From Escherichia phage vB_EcoM-pEK20: a stretch of DNA of 64,000 nt. Numbering within the stretch: position 1 is the stretch's first letter; each line of letters starts with the position of its first letter. The DNA is taken from the sequence record MZ868638.1. The stretch is one strand, 5' to 3'. Positions 27,782 to 49,432 of this stretch are shown piece by piece. A program made the position numbers and the translations under genes. Below the pieces are notes generated by a model that saw only the letters and a list, made by a program, of their open reading frames with translations, was not told the origin of the DNA and searched no databases.

Positions 27782-29595
27782 AAATTGAAAAAGAAATTGA
27801 AGGATTAATTCATAAAACTAATAAAGATCTTTTGAACGAGAATGCTAATAAAGATTCTCGTGTTTTTCCAACTCAACGGGACCTTATGGCTGGTATTGTG
27901 TCTAAGCACATTGCCAAAAATATGGTCCCGTCTTTTATTATGAAAGCACATGAAAGCGGAATTGTCCATTTCCATGATATTGATTATTCCCCTGCTCTTC
28001 CATTTACTAATTGCTGTTTAGTAGATTTAAAAGGAATGCTTGAAAACGGGTTTAAGCTAGGTAATGCTCAAATTGAAACGCCTAAATCGATTGGTGTTGC
28101 TACTGCAATTATGGCACAAATTACCGCACAGGTTGCTTCACATCAGTACGGCGGAACGACTTTTGCTAATGTAGATAAAGTACTTTCTCCTTATGTTAAA
28201 CGCACCTATGCAAAACATATTGAGGATGCAGAAAAATGGCAAATCGCTGATGCGTTGAATTATGCCCAATCTAAAACAGAAAAAGACGTATACGATGCAT
28301 TTCAAGCTTATGAGTATGAAGTAAATACTCTTTTTAGCTCAAACGGTCAAACGCCTTTTGTAACAATTACATTTGGTACTGGAACTGACTGGACTGAACG
28401 AATTATTCAGAAAGCAATTCTTAAAAACCGCATTAAAGGCCTTGGTCGTGATGGAATAACTCCTATTTTCCCTAAACTTGTTATGTTCATTGAAGAGGGT
28501 GTCAATCTTTATAAAGACGACCCGAACTATGATATTAAGCAGCTTGCTCTAGAGTGTGCAAGCAAAAGAATGTATCCTGATATTATTTCAGCTAAGAACA
28601 ATAAAGCTATCACTGGTTCATCTATTCCTGTTTCTCCAATGGGTTGTCGTAGTTTCTTGAGTGTATGGAAAGATTCGACTGGAAATGAAATTCTTGATGG
28701 ACGTAATAATCTTGGTGTTGTAACACTGAATCTTCCTCGTATTGCGTTAGATTCTTATATTGGAACACAATTCAATGAACAGAAATTTGTTGAGCTATTT
28801 AATGAACGAATGGATCTGTGTTTTGAAGCCTTGATGTGTAGAATTAGTTCTTTAAAGGGTGTTAAAGCAACAGTTGCTCCTATTCTTTACCAAGAAGGTG
28901 CATTTGGGGTTCGTCTTAAACCTGATGATGATATAATTGAGCTATTTAAAAACGGTAGAAGTTCAGTGTCTTTAGGATACATTGGTATTCACGAATTGAA
29001 TATTCTTGTCGGTCGTGATATTGGACAGGAAATTTTGACTAAAATGAATGCTCGTCTTAAGCAGTGGACTGAAAGAACCGGTTTTGCTTTTAGCTTGTAT
29101 TCTACTCCTGCTGAAAACCTGTGCTATCGCTTCTGTAAACTTGATACTGAAAAATATGGAAGTGTAAAAGATGTTACTGATAAAGGCTGGTACACTAATA
29201 GTTTCCATGTTTCAGTAGAAGAAAATATCACTCCGTTTGAAAAGATTTCTCGCGAAGCCCCATATCATTTCATTGCGACTGGCGGACACATTTCTTATGT
29301 TGAACTTCCTGATATGAAAAATAACCTAAAAGGTCTTGAGGCTGTCTGGGATTATGCTGCGCAACATTTAGATTATTTTGGTGTTAATATGCCAGTAGAT
29401 AAATGTTTTACGTGTGGAAGTACCCATGAAATGACTCCTACCGAAAACGGATTTGTTTGTTCTATTTGTGGAGAAACTGATCCTAAAAAGATGAACACAA
29501 TAAGAAGAACTTGTGGTTATCTTGGAAATCCTAACGAACGTGGATTTAATCTCGGCAAAAATAAAGAAATCATGCATAGGGTTAAACACCAATGA
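27778..29595 (+). CDS. nrdD: anaerobic ribonucleoside-triphosphate reductase
   Basis: 605 aa, glycyl-radical motif RTCGYLG and zinc-site cysteines at C-terminus; uninterrupted (no intron). Confidence 0.95.
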   Translation: MKIEKEIEGLIHKTNKDLLNENANKDSRVFPTQRDLMAGIVSKHIAKNMVPSFIMKAHESGIVHFHDIDYSPALPFTNCCLVDLKGMLENGFKLGNAQIETPKSIGVATAIMAQITAQVASHQYGGTTFANVDKVLSPYVKRTYAKHIEDAEKWQIADALNYAQSKTEKDVYDAFQAYEYEVNTLFSSNGQTPFVTITFGTGTDWTERIIQKAILKNRIKGLGRDGITPIFPKLVMFIEEGVNLYKDDPNYDIKQLALECASKRMYPDIISAKNNKAITGSSIPVSPMGCRSFLSVWKDSTGNEILDGRNNLGVVTLNLPRIALDSYIGTQFNEQKFVELFNERMDLCFEALMCRISSLKGVKATVAPILYQEGAFGVRLKPDDDIIELFKNGRSSVSLGYIGIHELNILVGRDIGQEILTKMNARLKQWTERTGFAFSLYSTPAENLCYRFCKLDTEKYGSVKDVTDKGWYTNSFHVSVEENITPFEKISREAPYHFIATGGHISYVELPDMKNNLKGLEAVWDYAAQHLDYFGVNMPVDKCFTCGSTHEMTPTENGFVCSICGETDPKKMNTIRRTCGYLGNPNERGFNLGKNKEIMHRVKHQ

Positions 29596-30062
29596 ATTAT
29601 GATAGATTTTATCCTTGCGATTTTGTGAATGGCCCTGGTTGCAGGGTCGTTCTTTTCGTTACAGGTTGTTTGCATAAATGCGAAGGGTGTTATAATAAAT
29701 CAACATGGAATGCTAGAAATGGTATTCCATTCACAGGTGAAACACTAGAGCAATTAATTGAATGTTTGAATAATGATTATATAGAAGGATTAACTATAAC
29801 TGGAGGAGACCCTCTCTATCCCGATAACAGAGATGTTGTTCATTGCATTGCTCAAACAGTAAAAAATCTTTATCCCAATAAAAGCATTTGGTTGTGGACA
29901 GGATATAAGTTTGAAGATATTAAACAACTAGAAATGCTTAAATATGTTGATGTTATTATTGATGGGAAGTATGAGAAAAATCTTCCGACCAAAAAACTGT
30001 GGCGAGGATCAGATAATCAGCGACTTTGGTCAAATACCGATGGGGTGTGGAAACATGATTAA
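29592..30062 (+). CDS. nrdG: anaerobic RNR activating enzyme (radical SAM)
   Basis: CxxxCxxC-type cluster CLHKCEGCYN; immediately downstream of nrdD. Confidence 0.9.
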   Translation: MNYDRFYPCDFVNGPGCRVVLFVTGCLHKCEGCYNKSTWNARNGIPFTGETLEQLIECLNNDYIEGLTITGGDPLYPDNRDVVHCIAQTVKNLYPNKSIWLWTGYKFEDIKQLEMLKYVDVIIDGKYEKNLPTKKLWRGSDNQRLWSNTDGVWKHD

Positions 30063-30172
30063 ATTGAATTACATTATGGATACTATAAATGATATGATTT
30101 TTCGTTTTGGTCCAGAATTTTATTCGCAGTATAGTTTGGTGTTTATCAATGCTTAGTTAATTAAGGGTAAAT

Positions 30173-30388
30173 ATGTATAAATTTCGTAAAGGTTTAGCTG
30201 ATTTTCTTACAACTGTAACGTTCTTTTTGTTTATGGCAGTTGGAGCTATTTTTCTTATTCCTTTTACTGTTGTATTTTTCTTGATTAGTTTAATTTCTCC
30301 GGAAAAGGGTTTATCCTCCAGCGAATTCAATGAACGTTTGGACAAAATTACTAATAAACTGAATTCTGTTCTTGATAAAAAGGCTTAA
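30173..30388 (+). CDS. small membrane protein
   Basis: hydrophobic 71-aa ORF. Confidence 0.4.
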   Translation: MYKFRKGLADFLTTVTFFLFMAVGAIFLIPFTVVFFLISLISPEKGLSSSEFNERLDKITNKLNSVLDKKA

Positions 30389-30390
30389 TT

Positions 30391-30708
30391 ATGATTAGTT
30401 TTGAGCGGTATGTGGTAGAGAGTTGGAAAGGTTTTGATATGTTCGGTAATGACTATTATTTTTACGAATGTAATCTAAATCCTAGTTTTTGGGCTGGACG
30501 TGAACGAGATCTCGAAGAAATTAATGCTCGTGCCGAATTGTTAGGTGAACTGCCTACAGTTTATTTTACCTTTGATGAATCTGGATTTGTTATCCAGGTT
30601 TATTTTCCTGAAGAAAACTCTGGCGAGGATTCTGTTAATCCTCCTTATTGGGCTTACCAAGGAATTATTTCTCGTGGAACAAAACTCGAACTTAAAGAAC
30701 AAGATTGA
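30391..30708 (+). CDS. hypothetical protein
   Basis: ATG ORF. Confidence 0.45.
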   Translation: MISFERYVVESWKGFDMFGNDYYFYECNLNPSFWAGRERDLEEINARAELLGELPTVYFTFDESGFVIQVYFPEENSGEDSVNPPYWAYQGIISRGTKLELKEQD

Positions 30709-30997
30709 AATTTATGGCATCCCTGAAGAAGTAGGACGTTGTCCGGGATGTTATACTGTTACAAAACTTTTAAAGGAGCTCAATGCTCCTTATACGTTTT
30801 ATAAAGTCCTCACTAATAATGGTAAGATTGAATATGACCGTCCTTTAATCGTATCTCTTGCTAAACGTGCAGGATTCACTTCACTTAATATTCGTTATCC
30901 TGTCATATTTTTAAATGATAAGAAACAAAAGAATATTGCAGAGTTTAAAAAGTCCTTGATTTCATTAGGATATGACTCCGATATCATAGAAGATTGA
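30674..30997 (+). CDS. nrdH: glutaredoxin-like protein NrdH
   Basis: CPGCY redox motif; no in-frame ATG near N-terminus, start assigned to GTG 30674 (ATT 30704 also possible). Confidence 0.55.
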   Translation: MEQNSNLKNKIEIYGIPEEVGRCPGCYTVTKLLKELNAPYTFYKVLTNNGKIEYDRPLIVSLAKRAGFTSLNIRYPVIFLNDKKQKNIAEFKKSLISLGYDSDIIED

Positions 30998-31020
30998 CCA
31001 GGTGCCGCCTGGTCTTCTTT
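30996..31020 (+). terminator. rho-independent terminator
   Basis: gaccagg 30996-31002 / cctggtc 31008-31014 then ttcttt. Confidence 0.6.
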
Positions 31021-31106
31021 ATCTCATTTCTAATATAATCCATTGGAATCTTCACTTCACTATCTCCTTGTGCCCCTCTCAAATCAAAAAATATTTTCAT
31101 AAAACA

Positions 31107-31135
31107 GTTTACATCCTCAATAGATGTGTTAAGAT
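31107..31135 (+). promoter_or_regulatory. early promoter
   Basis: -35 gtttac 31107-31112, -10 taagat 31130-31135. Confidence 0.5.
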
Positions 31136-31163
31136 TAAACCATCTACTATAGAGGAAAATAAA

Positions 31164-31346
31164 ATGACAATTGAAGATAAAGAAATTAAGGTCGACCAGT
31201 ACTATTCTGTCAACGGTAGTGCAGTACAGATAACCAGAGTTTCAAGCCTGGATGTTTGGTACCGTTCGATCAAATATCCAGAAATTGGTGAAATGCTTTG
31301 TGACCGTGGTATCTTCTGTTCAATTGCGAAGGAAATTAAGCCATGA
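31164..31346 (+). CDS. hypothetical small protein
   Basis: ATG at M55 of listed ORF, SD agagga. Confidence 0.35.
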   Translation: MTIEDKEIKVDQYYSVNGSAVQITRVSSLDVWYRSIKYPEIGEMLCDRGIFCSIAKEIKP

Positions 31347-31591
31347 TTAGTTTAGATTCAAAGAAAGTTGTTCTAACCCTTAAAGTTAATGATGAGCGTC
31401 TAGTATTCGTTACCATTTCAGATTTGCATGTTGAAATTGCTAATGGCGTCCGTACTTATCAAACGTCTAAAACACAATGGGACTATATCCCAATGTTGAC
31501 GCTTACTCAGCGTTTAGAATCAATCGGTCTTAAAGACCTTTCAGTAAGTGAAGTGAATTTTATCAAACGCGTTGTATCAATCAACCTCTGA
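31343..31591 (+). CDS. hypothetical protein
   Basis: ATG overlapping upstream stop. Confidence 0.4.
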   Translation: MISLDSKKVVLTLKVNDERLVFVTISDLHVEIANGVRTYQTSKTQWDYIPMLTLTQRLESIGLKDLSVSEVNFIKRVVSINL

Positions 31592-31598
31592 GGTACTT

Positions 31599-31892
31599 AT
31601 GGGTAAAACGTATCGTCGTAAAGATTTGAAAGTTCGTGATTACGACTATTTTGGTAAACGTAAAGCTCCTGACGGTGTTAGCCACAAAGACATGGTTGAA
31701 AACATTTTCCGCTCAGATAAATGGAAACGTATGAAAGGCGTTGATTCTGAAGTCAAGAACGAAATGAATCGACAACTCCGCAAAGAAGTTCGTAAGTTGA
31801 AAAAAGATGTTTACAGTAAAGAAGATTATGATTATAATACTTCTCATACTGAAGCCAAACGTAAAGCTAATGAATGTTATCGTTACAGTTGA
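31599..31892 (+). CDS. hypothetical basic protein
   Basis: ATG at M10 of listed ORF. Confidence 0.4.
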   Translation: MGKTYRRKDLKVRDYDYFGKRKAPDGVSHKDMVENIFRSDKWKRMKGVDSEVKNEMNRQLRKEVRKLKKDVYSKEDYDYNTSHTEAKRKANECYRYS

Positions 31893-32030
31893 GGAAATTA
31901 TGAATATCAAACGAATGCTTTTTAAGCAGGGATTATATACTTTAAATGTTAATCCAAAGGGTGATACAACTAAATGGTCTGTAAATGACTGGATTAAGTT
32001 CATCGATGAAAATGGGGCGTGGAACACAAA

Positions 32031-32231
32031 ATGAATCCTGAAAATATTGTGTCATGGCAACTTCGTGAAGAACGTGCCGAATTCTTTGCCAATATGAAAC
32101 TCAACGGCGTTGAGGACGAAGACTTTTTACGTTGGTTCTGGATTTACAAATACAAAGAATGCCAGCACGCTGTACTACTGACTTGTGCAGCTATGTATGA
32201 AGGCTGGAAAGGCGCTAAAAAGTTCGGTTAA
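32031..32231 (+). CDS. hypothetical small protein
   Basis: ATG at M5 of listed ORF. Confidence 0.4.
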   Translation: MNPENIVSWQLREERAEFFANMKLNGVEDEDFLRWFWIYKYKECQHAVLLTCAAMYEGWKGAKKFG

Positions 32232-32294
32232 TAATGTACAACGATAGGAAGACGTGTTATTATCTTCCTATCGTCTTAAAATGAGGAAAATATC

Positions 32295-32534
32295 ATGGAA
32301 CAAGAATTAGACGTTATTACATCGAAAAAACGTCTTGAAGTCGTAGTGAATGGCTCAACTATTAAGTTTGTATATGACACTTTAACTGATGCTATTACCG
32401 TTAGTTGTGGTGGAAAGGCTTTTAGTCTAGATTCTACTGAAAACAAATACCCGTTCTATAAAGGTATCTTTGATATGGGTGTTGATATCAGTGTTCGTCA
32501 AGCAAACTATTTACATTATCTTATCACGGAATAA
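32295..32534 (+). CDS. hypothetical protein
   Basis: ATG ORF, SD gagga; upstream inverted repeat gacgataggaaga/tcttcctatcgtc. Confidence 0.45.
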   Translation: MEQELDVITSKKRLEVVVNGSTIKFVYDTLTDAITVSCGGKAFSLDSTENKYPFYKGIFDMGVDISVRQANYLHYLITE

Positions 32535-32563
32535 TGCACAAACTCTTGAGAGCAGAGTATAAT
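32535..32563 (+). promoter_or_regulatory. early promoter inside repeated stem-loop cassette
   Basis: -35 tgcaca, -10 tataat 32558-32563. Confidence 0.5.
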
Positions 32564-32584
32564 GCTCTCTCATTGGATAATAAA
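32539..32584 (+). repeat. promoter cassette copy B (near-identical to 2425..2468)
   Basis: caaactcttgagagcagagtataatgctctc shared with 2425-2455. Confidence 0.8.
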
Positions 32585-32602
32585 ATAACCGAGGAAAATA
32601 AT

Positions 32603-32935
32603 ATGTCTACTAAAATCAAAAACGTAGTTAATTCTTTCGCTTTCGATAAAGTTGTTGCTCTTCTGGAATCCGGCAATATTGTTACTCCTCAAGTCCTTGA
32701 CGCGTGGGAATTCCGTCTTTATGAAATCATGCAAAAACACGACCAGAAAATTGGACGTAATTCTATTCGTGAAATTCTAGTACAATATATTCTTTCTGAA
32801 TTTGACGTTGCTGCATTTGGTGTTGAATCTAAAGCTTATCAGAAACATGAAATCTCTGAAAAGACTATCCGTCGTATGAAAAATCAACGTAAGAAAAAAT
32901 TCGTTGACCTGAAAATTGTTAAGGCGGTAAAATGA
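32603..32935 (+). CDS. hypothetical protein
   Basis: ATG at M24 of listed ORF, SD gagga. Confidence 0.45.
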   Translation: MSTKIKNVVNSFAFDKVVALLESGNIVTPQVLDAWEFRLYEIMQKHDQKIGRNSIREILVQYILSEFDVAAFGVESKAYQKHEISEKTIRRMKNQRKKKFVDLKIVKAVK

Positions 32936-33159
32936 GTGTATTAACAGAATCTTTGATTAATGACCTGCGTCTAGCTGGTTACGAAGTTGGTACAAATAGC
33001 CTAGGTCTTTCTCAGATTGAAGGGCTTGGATTTATCCTAGAATATGAATTCAAACAATGGTGGCTATATGCTACGGCTGACGATGCGTTGAATATCGATT
33101 TCGTTGACCAATTTGATTCGTTGGATGATGCTCTTGAAGCAGCAAAGGAACTAGAATGA
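32932..33159 (+). CDS. hypothetical acidic protein
   Basis: ATG overlapping upstream stop. Confidence 0.4.
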   Translation: MSVLTESLINDLRLAGYEVGTNSLGLSQIEGLGFILEYEFKQWWLYATADDALNIDFVDQFDSLDDALEAAKELE

Positions 33160-33425
33160 AATTAACTCGAATCAGTATAACTGAAGAAAAGCTGGGCGAA
33201 TTTTATGTTGACGAATACATGAAAGTCACGTATTTTCCATTCGTTAAAGGTGTTGGTTTTTGGGAAACTCATGTATCTCAATTAAACGAAGGCGACTATA
33301 ACGAAACACATGAGAACTTTTTAGATTTTCTTTATAATGCCGGTCTTACTGAGCTTTATATCGATATCCATGAGTTCAAACGTTTAATGGAAAAAGTGTT
33401 TCAGGCTTATTGTTTGCTCCGATAG
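33156..33425 (+). CDS. hypothetical protein
   Basis: ATG overlapping upstream stop. Confidence 0.4.
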   Translation: MKLTRISITEEKLGEFYVDEYMKVTYFPFVKGVGFWETHVSQLNEGDYNETHENFLDFLYNAGLTELYIDIHEFKRLMEKVFQAYCLLR

Positions 33426-33432
33426 TATCTCG

Positions 33433-33477
33433 TGCTTTAAGATAGGTCTCTAAATATTATGATATAATAGACCTATG
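33433..33477 (+). promoter_or_regulatory. promoter-containing stem-loop upstream of gene 55 (MotA-box-like tgcttta)
   Basis: tgcttta 33433-33439; inverted repeat ataggtct 33442-33449 / agacctat 33470-33477 enclosing tattat and tataat. Confidence 0.4.
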
Positions 33478-33497
33478 AATTGAGCTAAGAGGTACTT

Positions 33498-34055
33498 ATG
33501 ACCGAACAAAAACCTAAAAATAACTATGTGAATAATAAAGAGCTTCTCGCCGCTATAATCGAGTGGAAAAAGGAGCTCTTAAATAATAAAGACCCAAACA
33601 AAATTATTCGTCAGAATGATACCATCGGTTTAGCAATTATGCTTATCGCCGAAGGCCTGTCCAAACGTTTCAACTTTTCAGGATATACCCAGTCTTGGAA
33701 GCAGGAGATGATTGCAGATGGGATTGAAGCCTCTATTAAGGGACTTCATAATTTCGACGAAACTAAGTACAATAACCCACATGCATACATAACTCGAGCT
33801 TGTTTTAATGCTTTTGTCCAACGTATCAAAAAAGAACGTAAGGAAGTTGCAAAGAAATATAGTTACTTCGTTCATAACGTCTACGACAGTCATGACGATG
33901 ATATGGTAGCGTTGGTAGATGAAACGTTTATTCAAGACATCTACGATAAAATGACGCATTATGAAGAATCCGCTTATAAAGCTCCTGGGGCTGAAAAGAA
34001 GGAAGTTGTTAGCGATTCGCCTAGTTTGGATTTTTTATATGAGGATGACAATTGA
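33498..34055 (+). CDS. 55: late-transcription sigma factor gp55
   Basis: near-identical to T4 gp55 (YVNNKELL...[39 protein letters not shown]). Confidence 0.95.
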
Positions 34056-34254
34056 CATCTCTAACTACTTAGAAGAACCTTTTGACGAAGCAATCCCTTA
34101 TTTGGTAAAACTGTTGGGTCGTGAATTTAAAATTAATTTTGACATCGACCCTTTGAACCCACATGACGTGTCATTTTCGATAAATGGGACTCCGGTTGAG
34201 TATGAGTTCTGTATTGAAGAGGATGGACGTTTTTATTTTAATTTAATGAGATAA
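34039..34254 (+). CDS. hypothetical small protein
   Basis: ATG at M27 of listed ORF 33961, overlapping 55 stop. Confidence 0.35.
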
Positions 34255-34255
34255 T

Positions 34256-34579
34256 ATGACTACCGAGATTATTGAAAATAAAGAAGCAGAAGATGCAGTA
34301 GCTAAAATGCTACAAGAAATCCAAAAGAAAAATGAAGCTGAAGCACGTAAAAAATCCGAAAAGATTCTTAAAAAGAATCGTTTTGAACTAAACCGTCTTT
34401 ATGCTCATGCTCAAGAAGCAGCAATTCAAAACAACTTCGAAGCTTACGAATATGCTATTAAGAAATCTCGGGATATTCTACGACAACCATATAATGACAA
34501 GTTAATTAAAATCCAGTGGATTACTACTCGTCAGGCTATTGAGGACATCATTAATGGCGCTAGTTCAAACAAAGTTTAA
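34256..34579 (+). CDS. hypothetical protein
   Basis: ATG ORF. Confidence 0.45.
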   Translation: MTTEIIENKEAEDAVAKMLQEIQKKNEAEARKKSEKILKKNRFELNRLYAHAQEAAIQNNFEAYEYAIKKSRDILRQPYNDKLIKIQWITTRQAIEDIINGASSNKV

Positions 34580-34760
34580 ACGTCTGAAGCTGAACGCAGG
34601 GTTCACCCTTAAATTGGGAGGTCCTCTTTGTGTTAAAATTTCTGAAAAGGAATATCACGACGGTTCTATTACAGAAATTTGTCCGCCTATTGTAAAGGCA
34701 GACCCAAAACAACTCGTGTGGGTTGATTCATTTCAAGTTAAGAAATGGTGGAAACGATGA
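34554..34760 (+). CDS. hypothetical small protein
   Basis: ATG at M6 of listed ORF. Confidence 0.35.
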   Translation: MALVQTKFKRLKLNAGFTLKLGGPLCVKISEKEYHDGSITEICPPIVKADPKQLVWVDSFQVKKWWKR

Positions 34761-34799
34761 GAGAAATCGATTTAGGCATTTTCTGAGAGGTGCTTATGC

Positions 34800-34973
34800 A
34801 TGACGAACATCCCGACTTCTGAAAATTTCGATAAAATCCGTAAAGGCAAAGCAGAAAGAATGAGACGTTTTAAAGAGTCTTATGATAAAGCTAAAGCCGA
34901 AGGAACTATTACATACAAGCCCATTCGATTTAAAAGTTCAAATGAGCCTCTGTACGGTGTACTATGTGGATAG
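34800..34973 (+). CDS. hypothetical small basic protein (57 aa)
   Basis: ATG ORF not in track; followed directly by terminator. Confidence 0.3.
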   Translation: MTNIPTSENFDKIRKGKAERMRRFKESYDKAKAEGTITYKPIRFKSSNEPLYGVLCG

Positions 34974-34996
34974 GAACTCTTCGGAGTTCCTTTTTT
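34972..34996 (+). terminator. rho-independent terminator
   Basis: aggaactc-ttcg-gagttcct then T6 34991-34996. Confidence 0.7.
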
Positions 34997-35042
34997 GCTT
35001 TATAAACGGATGATAGAATGAATTAACTAATGAGGAAATAAT

Positions 35043-36062
35043 ATGAAAATTTTAAATTTAGGTGATTGGCATTTAGGTGTTAAAGCCGATGATGAGTGGG
35101 TTCAATCCATTCAGTTGGATGGAATTAAGCAGGCGATAGAATATTCTAAGAAAAATGGAATTACTACATGGATTCAATACGGCGATATTTTTGATGTGCG
35201 AAAAGCAATCACGCATAAAACTATGGAGTTCGCACGTGAAATAGTTCAAATGCTTGATGATGCTGGTATTACCCTACATACTGTTGTAGGAAACCATGAT
35301 ATGCACTTTAAAAATACTTTAACTCCAAACGCTTCTACTGAGCTTTTAGCTAAATATCCTAATGTTAAAGTATATGATAAGCCTACTACAGTAGATTTTG
35401 ACGGATGTTTGATTGATTTAATTCCTTGGATGTGCGAAGAAAATACTGGTGAAATTCTTGAACATATCAAAACTTCATCTGCTTCTTTTTGTGTTGGGCA
35501 CTGGGAACTGAATGGTTTTTATTTCTATAAAGGAATGAAGTCTCATGGGCTTGAACCTGATTTTTTAAAGACCTATAAACAAGTCTGGTCCGGCCACTTC
35601 CACACAATCTCTGAAGCTGCTAACGTCAAATATATTGGGACACCATGGACCCTTACTGCAGGTGATGAAAACGACCCTCGAGGATTCTGGGTATTTGACA
35701 CCGATGTTGAACGTATGGAATTTATTCCTAATGAAACAACATGGCATCGACGAATCACTTATCCGTTTAAAGGCAAAATCAATTATTCTGATTATACTAA
35801 TCTAGCCGTACGTGTTATAGTATCAGAAATTGATTCAGAGTTGACTAAGTTTGAATCTGAACTTGAAAAAGTAGTTCACTCTCTTCGTATGGTTTCTAAA
35901 GTTGATAACAGTGTTGAATCTGATGACGACCAGGAAATCGAGATTAAATCACTTCAAGATATCATTAAAGAATATATTGACGCGATTCCAGATATCTCAG
36001 ACGAAGACAGAGAAGCGCTGGTCAAATATTCCAACGAACTTTATATTGAGGCAACACAATGA
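35043..36062 (+). CDS. 47: recombination endonuclease subunit gp47 (Mre11-like)
   Basis: 339 aa; phosphoesterase motifs DWHLG, GDIFD, GNHD; matches T4 gp47. Confidence 0.95.
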   Translation: MKILNLGDWHLGVKADDEWVQSIQLDGIKQAIEYSKKNGITTWIQYGDIFDVRKAITHKTMEFAREIVQMLDDAGITLHTVVGNHDMHFKNTLTPNASTELLAKYPNVKVYDKPTTVDFDGCLIDLIPWMCEENTGEILEHIKTSSASFCVGHWELNGFYFYKGMKSHGLEPDFLKTYKQVWSGHFHTISEAANVKYIGTPWTLTAGDENDPRGFWVFDTDVERMEFIPNETTWHRRITYPFKGKINYSDYTNLAVRVIVSEIDSELTKFESELEKVVHSLRMVSKVDNSVESDDDQEIEIKSLQDIIKEYIDAIPDISDEDREALVKYSNELYIEATQ

Positions 36063-36316
36063 CTTTAGATGAATTTAACAATGCTGGACTCAGGCTTGAA
36101 GTTGAAATGGACGTTAAAGATGATGATGGATTCGAGAACACTATCAAGTATTGGATTGAGCCATTACGTGTTGAAGGCAATGAAGTTAAAGCAGTTCATG
36201 TCTGCACCGACTGGGCTATTGAATTTAGCTTTAATATAATGGACAACGATACTCCTGGCTCTATTCTTAAAATGGCTGAAGCGTGTATTGAGGACGCGTA
36301 TAATGACGAAGACTGA
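36059..36316 (+). CDS. hypothetical acidic protein
   Basis: ATG overlapping 47 stop. Confidence 0.45.
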   Translation: MTLDEFNNAGLRLEVEMDVKDDDGFENTIKYWIEPLRVEGNEVKAVHVCTDWAIEFSFNIMDNDTPGSILKMAEACIEDAYNDED

Positions 36317-37163
36317 CTATGAAACTCAAATTTATAAAATTCTTAAAACCTCCTTCCCTTCGTGGGAAGGACTTGATGAGTATTTAAACTTTATAAAAAC
36401 TAATTCCACTAATAAAGTAAAAGGACTGACTCAGGTTCACCATATACTACCAAAATCTATTTTTCCAGATTTTAAAACATGTAAATGGAACTTGTGTCAT
36501 TTAAGTCATTATAACCATTTTATTGCACATAGCATTTTGGCAAAAACTGGCAACCACAAGATGATTAACGCGCTTCAAAGAATGTATACCGGGCGATTTA
36601 ATTTAAATTGTACAACGCATGAACTAAATAATATAGCCGAGGCGTATTCTTTAGAATTCGAAAATGTTTGTAAAGTTAATTCTATAAAAATGACATTATA
36701 CTATTCCAATCAGGATAATAGAATTAAGATTAGTCAAGCTTTAAAAGCATGGTTTAAAAATCCGGAAAATTTAAAGAAACATAGAATTATGACAAGTTCA
36801 AAGGAATTTAAAGAAACCGTCTCTATTATGACCCAAAAGTGGTTTAGTGACCCTATTAATAAACAAAAACATTTGGATGCTTGTCGTAAAATATCTAAAA
36901 CAACCGAATATAGAGAATCATTATCGGCTGGAGTTTCACGCAGTTGGAAAAATCCTAAAGTTAGAGACACTCATTTGAAATCTAGAAGAAAAGGATATCA
37001 TTGGGAAAATTTTGATATGCTTTACGTTGAATGGGTTAAAATGAACAAACCTAAATATGTAACTTTTTCTAAAAATTTAGTCAATTTAGGATATCCTATA
37101 CAAAGTTCTTTACAGGCTTTAGTTTCTGAATTCATGAGGAAAAATTTAAGTGAAAACATTTAA
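36303..37163 (+). CDS. HNH homing endonuclease with NUMOD-like repeats
   Basis: HNH core VHHILPKS...NLCHLSHYNHFIAH; three KxWxNPxxxKxH-type repeats; ATG at M6 of listed TTG ORF. Confidence 0.6.
   Translation: MTKTDYETQIYKILKTSFPSWEGLDEYLNFIKTNSTNKVKGLTQVHHILPKSIFPDFKTCKWNLCHLSHYNHFIAHSILAKTGNHKMINALQRMYTGRFNLNCTTHELNNIAEAYSLEFENVCKVNSIKMTLYYSNQDNRIKISQALKAWFKNPENLKKHRIMTSSKEFKETVSIMTQKWFSDPINKQKHLDACRKISKTTEYRESLSAGVSRSWKNPKVRDTHLKSRRKGYHWENFDMLYVEWVKMNKPKYVTFSKNLVNLGYPIQSSLQALVSEFMRKNLSENI
36303..37163 (+). mobile_element. free-standing homing endonuclease gene between genes 47 and 46
   Basis: HNH endonuclease ORF in a slot that holds only small ORFs in T4. Confidence 0.5.
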
Positions 37164-38838
37164 ATTAAATCGTGTTCGTTATAAAAATATAATGTCTGTT
37201 GGGCAAAATTTTATCGATATCCAATTAGATAAAGTCCAAAAGACCTTAATCACAGGTAAAAATGGTGGTGGTAAATCTACGATGTTAGAAGCCATTACTT
37301 TCGGACTTTTCGGTAAACCATTTCGTGATGTTAAGAAAGGGCAAATCATTAATAGCACGAACAAGAAAGAGCTCTTAGTTGAGCTTTGGATGGAATTCGA
37401 TGGTAAAAAATACTTCATTAAACGTGGCCAAAAACCCAATATTTTCGAAATCTCCGTTGACGGTGTTCGTCTTGATGAATCTGCCAGCAGTCGTGACTTC
37501 CAAGAAGAATTTGAACGCAGCATCGGAATGTCATACGCGTCTTTTAAACAAATCGTTGTGCTTGGGACGGCAGGGTATACCCCTTTCATGGCTCTTAGCA
37601 CCCCTGCTCGCAGAAAACTTGTCGAAGACCTTTTAGAAGTCGGCACACTCGCTGAAATGGATAAAATCAATAAGTCTCAAGTTCGAGAACTTAATTCCCA
37701 GGGACAAGTTCTCGATGCCAAGAAAGATGGTATTATCCAACAAATTAAGATTTATAACGAGAATATCGAACGTCAAAAGAAATTATCTGGTGATAATGTA
37801 GCGCGTCTACAGAATATGTATGACGACCTAGCCAAAGAAGCTCGTTCATTAAAAGCAGAAATCGAAGAAGCTAATGAGCGACTACTTAATATCGTTCTTG
37901 ATGAAGACCCTACTGAGGCATTCAACAAGATAGGACAAGAAGCATTCTTGATTAAATCTAAAATCGACTCATATAACAAAGTTATTAAGATGTATCATGA
38001 CGGTGGCACATGTCCTACTTGTGCATCACAGTTGCACCAGGGTGATCCTATTGTCTCTAAGATTACCGATAAGCTTCACGAATGTAATCACTCATTCGAA
38101 CAACTTACATGTCACAGAGATAATCTGAGTGTCTTAGTGGACGAATATAGAGCTAATGTTAAGACTAAACAGGACCTTGCATCTGATATTCGTACCAAGA
38201 AACAAGCAATGATTGCCACTATTGATAAAGCTAAGAAAGTTAAAGCTGCAATAGAACAAGCCTCAGCGGAATTTATCGACCATGCCGATGAGATAGCTTT
38301 GCTTCAAAAAGAACTTGATAAAATCATTAAAACAAAATCGGATATCGTTCTTGAAAAATACCATCGTGGTATTATCACAGATATGTTAAAAGATTCTGGT
38401 ATTAAAGGTGCTATCATTAAAAAATATGTGCCTCTGTTCAACAAACAGATTAACCATTATCTTAAAATCATGGAAGCTGATTACGTGTTTTCTATTGACG
38501 AAGAATTCAATGAATCTATAAAATCACGTGGTCGTGAAGAGTTCAGTTATGCTTCATTTAGTCAAGGTGAAAAGGCACGTATCGATATCGCATTGTTGTT
38601 TACATGGCGAGATATTGCTGAAAAGGTCTCTGGTGTTAGAATCAATACATTAATTATGGACGAAGTCATGGATTCCGCGACTGATTCTGAAGGTATTAAA
38701 GCTATTTCAACAATTCTTAACTCTCTAACCGATGCAAACGTGTTTATAATTAGTCACAGAGACCATGACCCACAAGCTTATGGACAACATCTTCAAATGA
38801 GCAAAGTTGGACGATTTACTGTAATGACTGTTTCATAA
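37150..38838 (+). CDS. 46: recombination endonuclease subunit gp46 (Rad50/SbcC-like)
   Basis: Walker A GKNGGGKST, coiled-coil middle, CPTC zinc hook, signature FSQGEKARI; GTG start overlapping HEG end. Confidence 0.95.
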   Translation: MKTFKLNRVRYKNIMSVGQNFIDIQLDKVQKTLITGKNGGGKSTMLEAITFGLFGKPFRDVKKGQIINSTNKKELLVELWMEFDGKKYFIKRGQKPNIFEISVDGVRLDESASSRDFQEEFERSIGMSYASFKQIVVLGTAGYTPFMALSTPARRKLVEDLLEVGTLAEMDKINKSQVRELNSQGQVLDAKKDGIIQQIKIYNENIERQKKLSGDNVARLQNMYDDLAKEARSLKAEIEEANERLLNIVLDEDPTEAFNKIGQEAFLIKSKIDSYNKVIKMYHDGGTCPTCASQLHQGDPIVSKITDKLHECNHSFEQLTCHRDNLSVLVDEYRANVKTKQDLASDIRTKKQAMIATIDKAKKVKAAIEQASAEFIDHADEIALLQKELDKIIKTKSDIVLEKYHRGIITDMLKDSGIKGAIIKKYVPLFNKQINHYLKIMEADYVFSIDEEFNESIKSRGREEFSYASFSQGEKARIDIALLFTWRDIAEKVSGVRINTLIMDEVMDSATDSEGIKAISTILNSLTDANVFIISHRDHDPQAYGQHLQMSKVGRFTVMTVS

Positions 38839-38839
38839 A

Positions 38840-38864
38840 CGCTTTAACACGATGTGGTTATAAT
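38840..38864 (+). promoter_or_regulatory. middle promoter (MotA-box type)
   Basis: cGCTTTA 38840-38846, 12-nt spacer, tataat 38859-38864; inverted repeat gatgtggt/accacatc. Confidence 0.55.
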
Positions 38865-38892
38865 GACCACATCAAATTAAATGGAGAACAAC

Positions 38893-39081
38893 ATGGAGTA
38901 TTCAACTGGCCAACATCTTCTCGTTGTCCCTGAAATTAAAAAATATGTTTTGACCAATACGTTTTCAGGTGAAGAACATATTGTTACTGAACAAATGCTC
39001 AAATCTGCTTTTAAAGATGAGTATAATAAAATAATGTCTAATCGCAATTCCGCATGGACAGTTACCGACTTCTACGAATAA
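38893..39081 (+). CDS. 45.2: small protein 45.2-like
   Basis: ATG at M5 of listed ORF; position upstream of rpbA/45. Confidence 0.5.
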   Translation: MEYSTGQHLLVVPEIKKYVLTNTFSGEEHIVTEQMLKSAFKDEYNKIMSNRNSAWTVTDFYE

Positions 39082-39093
39082 GAGAGAAATAAT

Positions 39094-39510
39094 ATGTTTA
39101 CTACTGCTAAAGGTTTCACTGCTGCTGATCTGAAAGTTACTTCTATCCGTACTGACGCTAACCCACATAACCATAATCGTGTTCGTAAAGCATGGGTCCT
39201 GCATTGTGATGACGCAAGTGCTAAAAAGCTTCAATCTCTTCCACAAGAAACTCGTTTTATGATTTATGGTTTTATTGATAACGATGTATCTGATATGTGG
39301 ATTCATCTGATGCGTAAGCACTATAAAGATTCTATTGAAGCCGGCGGAAAAATCGTTCTTGATAAAGATGGTTCTGAGCGTCTGGAAGATTTCTACTGTG
39401 TTGATGCCGACGAACAACTAATTGCAGCTGGCGAAATTGTTGCTTCTAAAATTCCAGAATATATTGAATCACTGCCTGAAGCTATTAAAAAGCAAATGGT
39501 TGCTGCATAA
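39094..39510 (+). CDS. rpbA: RNA polymerase-binding protein RpbA
   Basis: position immediately upstream of gene 45 and size as in T4. Confidence 0.65.
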   Translation: MFTTAKGFTAADLKVTSIRTDANPHNHNRVRKAWVLHCDDASAKKLQSLPQETRFMIYGFIDNDVSDMWIHLMRKHYKDSIEAGGKIVLDKDGSERLEDFYCVDADEQLIAAGEIVASKIPEYIESLPEAIKKQMVAA

Positions 39511-39550
39511 TAAATTTGTTAAACTTTGAATTGTCTTGAAAGGAAATAAA

Positions 39551-40237
39551 ATGAAACTGTCTAAAGATACTATCGCTATTCTGAAAAACTTTGCCTCTAT
39601 TAACTCCGGCATTCTGCTGAGTCAAGGTAAATTTATTATGACTCGTGCAGTTAATGGCACAACTTATGCGGAAGCAAATATCTCTGATGAAATTGATTTT
39701 GACGTAGCACTTTATGATTTGAATAGCTTCTTAAGCATTTTGAGTCTAGTGTCTGATGATGCTGAAATTTCAATGCACACCGATGGCAATATTAAAATTG
39801 CAGATACACGTTCCACGGTTTATTGGCCTGCCGCTGACAAGAGCACCATTGTTTTTCCTAATAAGCCAATTCAATTTCCAGTGGCTTCTGTGATTACTGA
39901 AATTAAAGCTGAAGACCTTCAACAATTGCTTCGAGTTTCACGTGGTCTTCAGATTGATACAATTGCTATTACAAATAAAGATGGTAAAATTGTTATCAAT
40001 GGCTATAATAAAGTTGAAGATTCTGGACTAACTCGTCCTAAGTATTCTTTGACTCTTACCGATTATGATGGTTCTAACAACTTTAACTTCGTAATCAATA
40101 TGGCTAATATGAAAATCCAGCCAGGTAACTATAAAGTAATGTTGTGGGGAGCTGGTGATAAAGTTGCAGCCAAGTTTGAAAGCTCTCAAGTAAGTTATGT
40201 TATTGCGATGGAAGCCGATTCTACTCACGACTTCTAA
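39551..40237 (+). CDS. 45: sliding clamp gp45
   Basis: MKLSKDT..LKNFASINSGILL matches T4 gp45 N-terminus; 228 aa. Confidence 0.95.
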   Translation: MKLSKDTIAILKNFASINSGILLSQGKFIMTRAVNGTTYAEANISDEIDFDVALYDLNSFLSILSLVSDDAEISMHTDGNIKIADTRSTVYWPAADKSTIVFPNKPIQFPVASVITEIKAEDLQQLLRVSRGLQIDTIAITNKDGKIVINGYNKVEDSGLTRPKYSLTLTDYDGSNNFNFVINMANMKIQPGNYKVMLWGAGDKVAAKFESSQVSYVIAMEADSTHDF

Positions 40238-40312
40238 GTCAAAGCTTTACGTTTAATGTAGTACTATTATGGAGGAGAAATCCTCCAGTTTAATGATAAT
40301 GAGGAAAATTAC

Positions 40313-41275
40313 ATGATTACTATCAATTCCAAAGAACACATTCTAGAACAGAAATATCGTCCTTCTTCCATTGACGAATGTATTCTGCCTGCGTATGACC
40401 ATGAAACATTCAAGTCTTTAGTATCTAAAGGAAAACTTCCTCATATTATTTTGCACTCTCCTTCTCCTGGTACAGGTAAAACAACCGTAGCAAAAGCATT
40501 ATGTAATGATATCAATGCCGAAATGATGTTCGTCAACGGTTCTGATTGTAAGATTGATTTTGTGCGTGGTCCGTTAACCGCATTCGCTCGTTCAGTCTCA
40601 ATGGAAGGCAAGCCTAAAGTTATTGTTATTGATGAATTTGACCGTAGTGGCCTCGCCGAATCACAACGTCACCTTCGTACATTCATGGAAGAATTCTCTA
40701 GTAACTGCTCTATTATTATTACTGCTAACAACATCGATGGAATTATTGAACCATTACGTAGTCGTTGTCGAGTTATCGAATTCGGACGTCCAACCGAAGA
40801 AGATAAAATCTCGATGATGAAGAAAATGATTCATCGTATGGTTGAAATCTGTAAGAACGAAAATATCGAAATCGCTGATATGAAAGTTGTTGCAGCTCTG
40901 GTTAAAAAGAACTTCCCGGACTTTCGTCGCACAATTGGACAATTAGACCAGTACTCGTCTAAAGGTGTTCTTGATGCGGGTATTTTGTCTATCGTAACTA
41001 ATGACCGTGGCACGGTCTCTGATGTTATCGAAGCAATGAAGAACAAAGATATCAAACAGCTTCGTGCATTAGCTCCAAAATATGCCGCAGATTATTCATG
41101 GTTCATCGATAAATTAGTTTCAGAATGTTATGACCAAGTTGCACCTGGTAAAAGTATTATTTCGCTTTATGAAATTGCAGGCGAAAACAATAAGTTTCAT
41201 GGATTAGCAAGTAATATTGAATTACATGTTATGTATATGCTTCTTCAACTGACCTGCGAACTGACTTGGAAATAA
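40313..41275 (+). CDS. 44: clamp loader large subunit gp44 (AAA+)
   Basis: Walker A SPGTGKTT, Walker [12 protein letters not shown] motif. Confidence 0.95.
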
Positions 41276-41276
41276 T

Positions 41277-41840
41277 ATGAACTTATTCGATGATGACGTC
41301 CAGCTTAACGAGCACCAAATTGCATGGAAGTCTAATGACGCTGATGCGATTCAAAAATGTGCTGATATGTTTAAAGAAAAACCTGAGAATGAATTCTTTA
41401 AAATCATTAATGCTATTAATGAAAAGAAATCTATGTCAATTGCTCAGGTCGACTACTCAAAATTTATGGTTGAGAACTCATTATCCCAGTTCCCAGAATG
41501 TATGCCAGCTGTTTACATGATGAACTTAGTCGGTTCTGAATTAAGTGATGAAGCGCACTTCAACTATATGATGGCGGCAATTCCGCGTGGTCGTCGATTC
41601 TCTAAATGGGCTAAACTAGTCGAAGACACTTCAGAGTTACTAGTTATCAAACTGTTGATGAAACATTACACAATCAACATGAATGATGCTACTGAGTATA
41701 AGCGGCTCCTTGAAAAAAATAACAAGTTGCCAATAGTCCTTAAAGAACTGAAGGCCATGGTCACTGATGAGTTTCTCAAAGAAGTTACAAAAAATGTGAA
41801 AGAACAAAAACAATTTAAAAAATTAGCATTGGAATGGTAA
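41277..41840 (+). CDS. 62: clamp loader small subunit gp62
   Basis: 187 aa, directly follows 44 as in T4. Confidence 0.9.
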
Positions 41841-41842
41841 AA

Positions 41843-42211: not shown

Positions 42212-42216
42212 AGCAA

Positions 42217-49413: not shown

Positions 49414-49432
49414 AAATTGTATTGAGGTAAAC

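Follow-up and report, generated by a model that had tools for sequence, protein, structure and literature searches.

We analysed a 64,000-nucleotide stretch of the genome of Escherichia phage vB_EcoM-pEK20 (MZ868638.1; hereafter referred to as the window) and conclude that it very probably derives from an RB69-type phage in which arabinosylated 5-hydroxycytosine takes the place of cytosine, the glucosyltransferases and Dam of T4 are missing, and the superinfection-immunity gene imm has been kept and moved. Mosigvirus DNA carries arabinosylated 5-hydroxycytosine (5hoC), as against the glucosylated 5-hydroxymethylcytosine (hmC) of T4, and three accessory slots of the T4 map, those of a-gt (between genes 55 and 47), imm (43 and 42) and dam (61 and 56), would reflect this difference. 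The glucosyltransferases are probably absent because the hydroxymethyl acceptor is not made. Homologies, indel boundaries, a GT-B fold and near-identity to experimentally characterised RB69 and HY126 proteins are established below, whereas the DNA chemistry of the present isolate is inferred. A preliminary description of the same DNA had proposed that the phage differs from T4 in both its DNA-modification and its superinfection-immunity genes. The first part stands, in that no Agt, Bgt or Dam homologue was found and a sugar-gene module adjoins a divergent thymidylate-synthase (TS) homologue, whereas the second part does not.

By sequence, the window belongs to a Mosigvirus, that is, an RB69-type T-even phage. 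Its closest relatives are in the RB69/JS09/PNJ-9 group (~97% identical); PNJ-9 shares 97.9% identity across 20 kb, and the same 20-kb DNA comparison returned 148 records with at least 80% query coverage. RB69 has 100% amino-acid identity in gp43 and 97% DNA identity across the 43-uvsX module. For whole-genome negatives, we used the complete PNJ-9 genome (170,071 bp) as a proxy, this genome being covered as the 64-kb window, and searched both with T4 Agt, Bgt, Dam, mobB, 47.1, segA and segF by tblastn. The best E values in the window and PNJ-9, respectively, were 2.6 and 1.4 for Agt (400 aa), 1.6 and 4.7 for Bgt (351 aa), and 1.1 and 1.3 for Dam (259 aa), indicating that none of the three has a detectable homologue in either sequence. 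The 47.1 protein gave E > 0.5 in both, mobB gave a weak motif match alone (E = 0.013 and 0.033), and segA and segF had no match in the window, their PNJ-9 matches being confined to a SegD-type gene outside the window region. The PNJ-9 annotation lists no methyltransferase. These absences are homology results in which motif counts play no part, so chance is not at issue; the scope of tblastn leaves room for very remote homologues. Thomas et al. (2018) reported that RB69 ORF003c is ~10% identical to an a-gt-related glycosyltransferase, and a distant a-gt relative therefore exists outside the window; the PNJ-9 homologue of RB69p003 (99.2% identity) is located at 165003-166103, likewise outside the window.

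Table 1 Features of the window at and around the three slots
Feature	Position	Strand	Evidence
Gene 55, late-transcription sigma factor; left border of the a-gt slot	33498-34055	+	90.7% aa to T4 gp55; 99.5% to RB69 gp55
a-gt.5 orthologue	34039-34254	+	46.6% to T4 a-gt.5, E 1e-14; 100% to RB69p070; phrog_1169 E 1e-24
a-gt.4 orthologue	34256-34579	+	57.7% to T4 a-gt.4, E 3.5e-32; 99.1% to RB69p069; phrog_951
a-gt.3 orthologue	34554-34760	+	70.8% to T4 a-gt.3, E 1.7e-29; 100% to RB69p068; phrog_1648
a-gt.2 orthologue	34800-34973	+	75.9% to T4 a-gt.2, E 3e-24; 94.7% to RB69p067; phrog_2140
Terminator-like hairpin, AGGAACTC-TTCG-GAGTTCCT then TTTTTT	34972-34997	+	Terminator scan
MotA-box-type middle-promoter-like site, TGCTTTA-N11-TAGAAT	34996-35019	+	Pattern match; T4 alignment
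Indel junction	35007-35040		34 bp versus 2,252 bp in T4 (record 38701-36450: mobB, a-gt, 47.1)
Gene 47, SbcD-like nuclease subunit; right border of the a-gt slot	35043-36062	+	86.4% aa to T4 gp47
HNH-type homing endonuclease ORF	36288-37163	+	phrog_655 homing endonuclease E 2.7e-31; phrog_12434 HNH E 2.5e-12
Putative arabinose-5-phosphate isomerase (RB69 gp55 equivalent)	45045-45680	+	Pfam SIS E 1e-10; 100% aa to RB69p055; role from Lee et al. 2026
T4 imm-42 intercistronic remnant	45698-45810	+	72% DNA identity to T4 record 26349-26237
Putative bifunctional sugar-1-phosphate nucleotidyltransferase/kinase (RB69 gp52:53, HY126 AfhE equivalent)	45862-47550	+	Pfam NTP_transferase E 9.6e-10; 95-99% aa to RB69p052/p053
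Putative HAD-like sugar phosphatase (RB69 gp51, HY126 AfhF equivalent)	47550-47936	+	98.4% aa to RB69p051; no Pfam match; function from literature
U32-family protein (RB69 gp50)	47978-49153	+	Pfam Peptidase_U32 E 7.5e-11; 99.5% aa to RB69p050
5-Hydroxy-dCMP synthase, flavin-dependent thymidylate-synthase homologue	49433-50149	+	99.2% aa to RB69 gp48; Pfam Thymidylat_synt E 2.4e-15
GT-B-fold glycosyltransferase, 299 aa (RB69 gp46:47, proposed arabinosyltransferase 1)	50149-51048	+	AlphaFold/Foldseek; 99-100% aa to RB69p046/p047
Thymidylate-kinase-like nucleotide kinase (RB69 gp45)	51050-51598	+	phrog_761 E 5e-45; 98.9% aa to RB69p045
imm.1	55955-56323	+	32% to T4 Imm.1, E 3.7e-15; 98.4% to RB69p037
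imm, superinfection immunity	56385-56633	+	65.1% to T4 Imm over 83/83 aa, E 2.6e-31; phrog_1039 'immunity to superinfection' E 1e-30
sp (spackle), at its T4 position	56697-56990	+	66% to T4 Sp, E 4e-43
Gene 61, primase; left border of the dam slot	58368-59390	+	74% to T4 gp61; 99.4% to RB69
RB69ORF029w-family hydrophobic ORF, 65 aa	59387-59584	-	95.4% to RB69p029; phrog_2024 E 2.6e-27
MotA-box-like site, CGCTTTA-N12-TAGAAT; candidate promoter	59616-59640	+	Sequence, upstream of gene 56
Gene 56, dCTPase; right border of the dam slot	59674-60195	+	71.7% to T4 gp56

The 987 bp (34056-35042) that separate the stop codon of gp55 (34055) from the start of gp47 (35043) contain four small plus-strand ORFs and no ORF of ~400 aa. 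This much had been described correctly, including the lack of an alpha-glucosyltransferase. The ORFs had also been taken for genes different from those of T4; they are T4's own a-gt.5, a-gt.4, a-gt.3 and a-gt.2, arranged in T4 order (47-76% amino-acid identity, E values of 1e-14 to 4e-32), and the slot just lacks mobB, a-gt and 47.1. As in T4, a-gt.5 overlaps gene 55, by 17 nt from the start at 34039 (RB69 and JS09 annotate 34045), and a-gt.3 overlaps the end of a-gt.4. The whole interval aligns gap-free to RB69.

The hairpin that follows a-gt.2 (-13.9 kcal/mol, z = -3.4, with an equally good fold in 0 of 200 shuffles) is common to T4, where it aligns with the hairpin GGAGCTTCGGCTCC; it is intrinsic-terminator-like and may terminate transcription. 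In T4 middle promoters, a MotA box, (a/t)(a/t)TGCTT(t/c)A, precedes a TAnnnT -10 element by ~12 bp. The site at 34996-35019 contains both elements and may function as a middle promoter; the MotA-type pattern occurs 14 times against 1.36 expected, and motA is annotated in PNJ-9 at 3490-4122. It aligns with TGCTTTA...TAAAAT upstream of mobB in T4, where a promoter has been reported (Edgell et al. 2010), and faces gene 47 here, whereas its T4 counterpart faces mobB and a-gt. The blastn boundaries (window 33433-35006 to T4 40222-38702, and window 35041-36083 to T4 36449-35407) place the extra 2.25 kb of T4 between the shared terminator/middle-promoter element and gene 47. The a-gt slot is empty rather than refilled, with the candidate middle promoter that faces mobB, a-gt and 47.1 in T4 abutting gene 47 here. 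Separately, a-gt appears to be missing from the same junction in other genera too.

Between gene 43, which ends at 45004, and the TS-family gene lie four larger genes, encoding a SIS isomerase, a nucleotidyltransferase/kinase, a 128-133-aa protein and a U32-family protein, with no imm among them, in agreement with the sugar module that had been recognised in the 43-42 interval. The remnant of the T4 imm-42 intercistronic region within this interval appears to mark the place where imm would have been, and RB69 is annotated there as 'ORF054c similar to T4 42-imm intercistronic region'. The isomerase, kinase/nucleotidyltransferase and HAD phosphatase are 95-100% identical to RB69p055, p053, p052 and p051 at the amino-acid level, and would together yield UDP-arabinofuranose, as proposed for an arabinose-5-phosphate isomerase, a bifunctional kinase/uridylyltransferase and a phosphatase. 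The C-terminal half of the bifunctional protein has weak APH/kinase matches in Pfam, and its function is assigned from the literature. The module proteins of 299, 182 and 133 aa have no Pfam match at E <= 0.01, nor do the HNH ORF and the minus-strand ORF; all of these were identified via PHROGs, RB69 identity and a fold search.

The TS homologue had been read as gene 42, but it is 24% identical to T4 gp42, the dCMP hydroxymethylase, and is not its orthologue; 235 of its 238 residues are identical to PDB 9IQC/9IR2. RB69 gp48 has been shown by experiment to act as a 5-hydroxy-dCMP synthase, hydroxylating dCMP with O2 in a flavin-dependent reaction, and the same activity is cited in that work for the HY126 enzyme (Lee et al.). 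At 99% identity, the enzyme encoded here probably also hydroxylates dCMP, and we designate it 5-hydroxy-dCMP synthase. Directly downstream, where T4 has b-gt, is the gene for the 299-aa protein, whose AlphaFold model (pLDDT 94.6, pTM 0.89) was built from a 61-sequence alignment, a single-sequence model (pLDDT 36) having been discarded. The model adopts a GT-B fold; the top Foldseek match was the retaining glycosyltransferase MshA (3C4Q), and HepE and 6KIH were also recovered, all three with probability 1.00. The same MshA-type fold has been published for RB69 gp46:47 (Lee et al., PMC13326640); the individual transferases were inactive in vitro, and the first arabinosyl transfer by gp46:47-type enzymes is a proposal. 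The flavin-dependent TS homologue would supply 5-hydroxy-dCMP, followed by the GT-B transferase in the b-gt position of T4 and then by the nucleotide kinase. The 43-to-uvsX module is recognisable as the published arabinosyl-5-hydroxycytosine pathway.

The dam slot, described at first as a ~280-bp spacer with one minus-strand ORF and no dam, indeed measures 283 bp from the end of gene 61 (59390) to the gene 56 ATG (59674) and holds that single ORF. The ORF is no replacement for dam: T4 itself has an unannotated 66-aa homologue next to dam (record 17738-17938; 55.6% identity over 63 aa, E = 7e-20). It lies tail-to-tail with gene 61, with a 4-nt overlap, has the ribosome-binding site AAGGAG, and is preceded by no consensus T4 late promoter (TATAAATA), 7/8 matches alone being found upstream (AATAAATA here, GATAAATA in T4). 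DNA homology with the upstream region of T4 gene 56 begins at 59629, inside the MotA-box-like site (window 59629-60195 to T4 16830-16270). The soc gene (60241-60477; 57% to T4) directly follows gene 56, with no segF between them. A gene 69 had been reported missing from the 61-56 interval; the absence holds (best segF match E = 7.2 in the window), but the placement does not, T4 'gene 69' being segF, between soc and 56. The dam slot lacks dam only (about 0.9 kb), the antisense ORF and the gene-56 promoter region being common to T4.

The superinfection-immunity genes were supposed to differ from those of T4, yet imm, imm.1 and sp are all in the window, with Imm 65% identical to its T4 counterpart over the full length and the T4 Imm match spanning 56385-56630. 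The T4 Imm search suggested alongside this proposal recovered the gene in a new place, the very outcome that had been named as refuting it. The imm DNA is 69% identical to T4 record 26633-26372. Relative to T4, imm and imm.1 have moved about 7 kb, from the 43/42 interval, where imm is no longer found, to the 61.4/sp interval, an arrangement already visible in the 2003 annotation of RB69. The promoter-like motif GTTTAC-N18-TACTAT precedes imm.1 (55897-55926) and imm (56327-56356), and GTTTAC-N18-TATAGT precedes sp (56638-56667). The two genes are retained between 61.4 and sp, apparently as self-promoted cassettes, so that the two superinfection-exclusion genes are adjacent. T4 sequence is matched on both sides of the imm.1-imm cassette over about 30 bp alone. 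Long direct repeats were considered as marks of its insertion; just 13-17-nt repeats near ribosome-binding sites occur, too short to serve as proof.

A comparison with known systems places the window closest to RB69 (NC_004928) and other Mosigvirus members (JS09, HX01, HY126 and PNJ-9), which have an identical gene order at all three slots and 95-100% protein identity for a-gt.5-.2, imm, imm.1, sp, ORF029w and the whole 43-uvsX module; RB69's own annotation lists a-gt.2-.5, ORF029w, and imm/imm.1 between 61.4 and sp. RB69 differs in its native gene 47 5′ end, which in the window and JS09 is Tequatrovirus-type over ~460 nt, and both RB69 and JS09 lack the HNH gene that replaces 46.1 in the window and PNJ-9. 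Each of the split RB69 ORF pairs 46/47 and 52/53 corresponds to one uninterrupted ORF here, which fits the sequencing errors that Lee et al. point out. The window matches the arabinosyl-5-hydroxycytosine cluster of Lee et al. (NAR 2026, PMC13326640, which also cites the HY126 Afh enzymes) in every component and in their order, from the isomerase through the kinase/uridylyltransferase, phosphatase, U32-like protein, 5hodCMP synthase and GT-B transferase to the nucleotide kinase, and no difference is detectable within it. Two further enzymes of the pathway are encoded outside the window: RB69 gp3, the second transferase, has a homologue in PNJ-9 (165003-166103), and for RB69 gp159, the cognate dNMP kinase, PNJ-9 annotates a dNMP kinase at 89724-90458.

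Compared with the nrdG-dda segment of T4 (NC_000866), 47 of the 58 T4 genes were matched (E < 1e-5), including a-gt.5-.2, 55, 47, 46, 45, 44, 62, regA, 43, uvsX, 41, sp, 61, 56 and soc, in T4 order save for imm and imm.1, which lie between 43 and 42 in T4; the hairpin and middle-promoter-like element after a-gt.2 are also common to both. Present in T4 but missing here are mobB, a-gt, 47.1, b-gt, segA, dam, segF and 46.1. The slots resemble, in general features, the hyperplastic regions and promoter/terminator cassettes (PeSLs) of T4-type phages (Arbiol et al. 2010, PMC2839356; Comeau et al. 2014, PMC4122927), in which genes are present, absent or relocated between conserved core blocks. Here too, the junctions are marked by predicted terminator hairpins and promoters, and imm.1, imm and sp each have an early-promoter-like motif; the repeats flanking the imm cassette are 13-17 nt long.

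That the three T4 slots have been refilled with different genes, and that glucosylation, Dam methylation and Imm-type immunity have been lost or replaced, is unlikely. The undetectable Agt, Bgt and Dam and the non-T4 sugar genes between gene 43 and the TS homologue would be expected on such a view, but the ORFs of the a-gt slot are T4's own, the immunity genes are all retained, and the minus-strand ORF beside the dam slot also occurs in T4, which confines the different genes to the 43-uvsX region. That the missing genes were recently deleted from this one isolate or lost in its assembly, rather than being absent from the lineage, is scarcely credible: single-gene deletions do happen in such variable regions, but we found no support for them here, and an unbroken a-gt.2-to-47 junction occurs in 148 phage records, an unbroken 61.4-imm.1-imm-sp block in 154, and RB69 (sequenced in 2003), JS09 and PNJ-9 share the arrangement gap-free.

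It is also very improbable that equivalents of Agt and Bgt have diverged beyond the reach of tblastn and that hmC is still glucosylated by remote GT-B homologues, such as the 299-aa protein and the RB69p003 homologue. The GT-B fold of the former would suit this role, and Thomas et al. (2018) first read the RB69 base as arabinosyl-hmC and saw the remote similarity of ORF003c to a-gt-type enzymes. However, the near-identical counterpart of the TS homologue (99%) has been shown to produce 5-hydroxy-dCMP rather than hmdCMP, published NMR and MS data show that RB69 DNA has arabinose ether-linked to 5hoC, and the sugar genes would yield an arabinose donor rather than UDP-glucose.

The biology described here has already been published for RB69: Thomas et al. 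(2018) reported that it lacks a-gt and b-gt, and the replacement chemistry, arabinosylated 5-hydroxycytosine made via a flavin-dependent TS homologue and a UDP-arabinose module, had been worked out by 2026 (Lee et al., PMC13326640). Our findings are thus of small value as discovery, and their practical use lies in annotation against the T4 map, in which the 238-aa TS homologue should not be called 'gene 42 / dCMP hydroxymethylase' and superinfection immunity should not be read as missing. The DNA would be expected to resist most restriction enzymes and to carry no phage-encoded GATC methylation.

The first ~460 nt of gene 47 appear to be a Tequatrovirus-type recombination tract that reaches the border of the empty a-gt slot and stops there. 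In 102-nt bins, gene 47 is 95-98% identical to that of the Tequatrovirus RB51 in bins 1-4 and 68-77% identical in bins 7-10, whereas identity to RB69 is 66-77% in bins 1-4 and 96-100% in bins 7-10; the tract also occurs in JS09, and RB69 is without it. It stops at most 2 nt from the gene-47 start codon, where the donor would carry 47.1 and a-gt. The balance of evidence leans towards the empty slot being an end-point of real inter-genus exchange, with a Mosigvirus sub-lineage (the window, JS09 and PNJ-9) carrying a ~460-bp conversion tract and RB69 keeping the native allele. If so, glucosyl-hmC and arabinosyl-5hoC phages recombine in nature, despite the reputation of RB69 for genetic isolation from T4, and the modification genes themselves are kept out, by a homology limit or by selection. 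Co-conversion of the tract with the neighbouring HNH gene was considered and rejected, in that the tract occurs in JS09 without the HNH gene, and the two are separated by the 3′ half of gene 47, which is RB69-like. The HNH region (~36330-37150) has no DNA match in RB69 or JS09, and T4 gp46.1 had no tblastn match in the window; the HNH ORF takes the place of gene 46.1, and PNJ-9 annotates its start at the equivalent of 36303.

The complete set of annotated T4 proteins covering nrdG to dda (58 proteins; NC_000866.4, record positions 9000–43000) was searched by tblastn against the window and the complete 170,071-bp genome of PNJ-9, its closest relative, with a first pass of 13 proteins. At E < 1e-5, 47 of the 58 were matched, with the T4 order kept except for imm and imm.1. 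T4 Agt, Bgt and Dam had no significant tblastn match, with best E values of 2.6, 1.6 and 1.1 in the window and 1.4, 4.7 and 1.3 in complete PNJ-9, respectively. The preliminary description of the T4 a-gt, imm and dam slots was thus confirmed as written at all three. The interval 34056–35042, which begins directly after the gp55 stop and ends directly before the gp47 start, contains only small ORFs and no alpha-glucosyltransferase; sugar-metabolism genes, instead of imm, lie between gene 43 and a thymidylate-synthase-family gene; and the 61-to-56 spacer, estimated at about 280 bp, measures 283 bp (59391–59673) and carries a single minus-strand ORF and no dam. Gene 69 is indeed absent, but had been assigned to the wrong position, as T4 gene 69 is segF, located between soc and 56.

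Nearly all long ORFs of the window lie on the + strand. In a DNA search with positions 30000–50000, PNJ-9 matched over the full length with 97.9% identity, and JS09, HX01, ST0, F2 and HY126 with 96–98%; in 148 phage records, one match spans at least 80% of the query. These relatives belong to the Straboviridae, Tevenvirinae, genus Mosigvirus, with RB69 as the type member. RB69 shares 97% DNA identity across the whole 43-to-uvsX region and 93.9%, gap-free, across the 55-to-47 region, and its gp43 and arabinose-5-phosphate isomerase are 100% identical at the protein level. The nrdD gene is one 605-aa ORF in the window (27778–29595), whereas PNJ-9 nrdD (121509–124371) is annotated as two parts with a homing-endonuclease gene (122295–123065) between them, a mobile-element difference between otherwise near-identical genomes. 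The mod region is also variable within the Mosigvirus group: the ORFs at 62045–62626 and 62684–63292 are named modB and modA in JS09, whereas PNJ-9 annotates a single ADP-ribosyltransferase, and the best match of both T4 ModA and T4 ModB is the second ORF (62690–63283, about 30% identity).

Features of the a-gt, 43-to-uvsX, imm and dam regions in window coordinates.
Feature	Coordinates	Strand	Evidence
a-gt.5 orthologue	34039-34254		tblastn T4, 47% identity, E 1e-14; PHROG family
a-gt.4 orthologue	34256-34579		tblastn T4, 58% identity, E 4e-32; PHROG family
a-gt.3 orthologue	34554-34760		tblastn T4, 71% identity, E 2e-29; PHROG family
a-gt.2 orthologue	34800-34973		tblastn T4, 76% identity, E 3e-24; PHROG family
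SIS domain	45045-45680		Pfam
Nucleotidyltransferase with weak kinase-like matches	45862-47550		Pfam
U32-family domain	47978-49153		Pfam
Thymidylate-synthase domain	49433-50149		Pfam
Early-promoter-like GTTTAC-N18-TAnnnT sites before imm.1, imm and sp	55897-55926; 56327-56356; 56638-56667		motif
RB69ORF029w-family ORF, 65 aa	59387-59584	-	95% identity to RB69ORF029w; phrog_2024

In T4, the 55-to-47 order is 55, a-gt.5, a-gt.4, a-gt.3, a-gt.2, mobB, a-gt, 47.1 and 47. The four small ORFs of the window, previously taken for different genes, are orthologues of T4's own a-gt.5, a-gt.4, a-gt.3 and a-gt.2, with the same order and overlaps. The DNA alignment with T4 ends at 35006, 29 nt beyond the a-gt.2 stop, and restarts 2 nt short of the gene-47 ATG, at 35041, such that 34 bp in the window correspond to 2,252 bp containing mobB, a-gt and 47.1 in T4. 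The left edge of this indel, shared with T4, is a hairpin (AGGAACTC-TTCG-GAGTTCCT, then T6) with a predicted folding energy of −13.9 kcal/mol (z = −3.4). It is followed by TGCTTTA-N11-TAGAAT, a sequence of the MotA-box middle-promoter type, whose pattern has 14 occurrences in the window versus 1.4 expected. In T4, the same hairpin and TGCTTTA...TAAAAT stand immediately after a-gt.2 and upstream of mobB, in agreement with the reported transcription of mobB from a promoter in the upstream non-coding region (Edgell et al. 2010). The left edge thus appears to be a regulatory element common to both genomes, and its predicted promoter would face mobB and a-gt in T4 and gene 47 in the window. Together, the orthology, the alignment edges and the shared element indicate that the a-gt slot is empty, not refilled.

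The supposed difference in superinfection immunity did not stand, as Imm was found relocated, the outcome named as refuting it. T4 Imm matches 56385–56630 over all 83 residues (65% identity, E 2.6e-31), flanked by matches to Imm.1 (55961–56308, 32% identity, E 4e-15) and Sp (56697–56987, 66% identity), and DNA alignment places the imm.1–imm cassette inside the equivalent of the T4 61.4–sp intergenic region. A GTTTAC-N18-TA(c/t)(t/a)(a/g)T motif, of the T4 early-promoter form, lies upstream of each of the three genes; GTTTAC-N18-TAnnnT was counted 26 times in the window versus 2.9 expected, with 23 on the + strand. The same gene arrangement runs uninterrupted in 154 phage records and is present in the 2003 RB69 annotation. 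On this sequence evidence, imm is not lost but relocated.

The sole slot where different genes sit is 43-to-uvsX. Its proteins share 95–100% identity with RB69 p055, p053/p052, p051, p050, p048, p047/p046 and p045. RB69 DNA contains mono- and di-arabinosylated 5-hydroxycytosine, gp48 is a 5-hydroxy-dCMP synthase using flavin and O2, and the adjoining genes are assigned roles in making UDP-arabinofuranose and in the transfer step (Lee et al., NAR 2026, PMC13326640). The window counterpart of gp48 (238 aa) has 235 residues in common with PDB 9IQC/9IR2 but only 24% identity to T4 gp42, and its assignment as gene 42 was rejected. Directly downstream, at the position of b-gt in T4, lies a 299-aa protein with no match in a Pfam search. 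The top structural match of its model (61 homologues, pLDDT 94.6) is the retaining GT-B glycosyltransferase MshA (3C4Q), with 6KIH also recovered, the same matches as published for RB69 gp46:47 (Lee et al., PMC13326640). A 113-bp remnant of the T4 imm–42 intergenic region (45698–45810, 72% identity) lies between the arabinose-5-P isomerase and kinase/nucleotidyltransferase genes; the RB69 annotators noted it, and a 36-aa 'ORF054c' is annotated over it.

These results fit together as a lineage-level difference in how cytosine is hypermodified, in which the dCTPase (gene 56) is kept, dCMP would be hydroxylated instead of hydroxymethylated, and GT-B enzymes would transfer arabinose from a phage-made nucleotide sugar. 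The acceptor of both T4 glucosyltransferases is the hydroxymethyl group; this acceptor would not be made, so T4-type glucosyltransferases would not be expected. Overall, the finding is already known: RB69 is stated to lack a-gt and b-gt (Thomas et al. 2018; Lee et al. 2026, PMC13326640), the arabinosyl module, its chemistry and its distribution in Straboviridae are published (Lee et al. 2026, PMC13326640), and the RB69 record gives the positions of imm, a-gt.2–.5 and ORF029w. Gain, loss and shuffling of genes at such junctions is the established hyperplastic-region picture of T4-type genomes (PMC2839356, PMC4122927).

The sequence-homology evidence for the absence of dam is robust. About 45 nt ahead of gene 56, at 59629, T4 DNA homology restarts within a CGCTTTA-N12-TAGAAT element, and only about 0.9 kb with dam is missing relative to T4. 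The minus-strand ORF of this spacer runs 4 nt into the end of gene 61 and is preceded by a strong AAGGAG ribosome-binding site. Its T4 homologue is intact (66 aa, record 17738–17938 (+), 56% identity to RB69ORF029w and the window ORF, E 7e-20), and conservation across genera suggests that this T4 ORF is a real gene. It encodes a hydrophobic protein, likewise overlaps gene 61 tail to tail by 4 nt, occupies the 309-bp spacer that otherwise appears 'empty' between gene 61 and dam, and is not annotated in the RefSeq feature table.

At its 5′ end, gene 47 carries a tract of ~460 nt (35041 to about 35500) that shares 95–98% identity with the Tequatrovirus RB51 and 80–97% with T4, whereas the flanks share only 68–77% with RB51. 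RB69 shows the reverse pattern (66–77% identity to the window inside the tract, 96–100% downstream), and its identity to T4 inside the tract (53–75%) is the usual divergence between the genera. The tract, also found in JS09, thus looks like gene conversion between genera, in which a Mosigvirus sub-lineage acquired Tequatrovirus DNA; the match ranking suggests fewer than about 30 carriers among the 148 contiguous records. Its boundary, the gene-47 start codon, is the edge of the empty slot, where the donor has 47.1 and a-gt; in RB51 these lie directly upstream of gene 47. A second mosaic patch (38500–38950, 3′ end of gene 46 to 45.2) has the reverse affinity, with 98.7% identity to RB69 and only 82–87% to JS09. 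Between 46.2 and 46, an HNH-type homing-endonuclease ORF (36288–37163 (+), 286–291 aa, phrog_655, E 2.7e-31) stands in place of 46.1. PNJ-9 shares this ORF, but RB69 and JS09 lack it and encode a 79-aa gp46.1 at the site. In RB51, the corresponding position is an unannotated gap of ~865 bp that is only weakly similar (about 70% over 100–190 nt).
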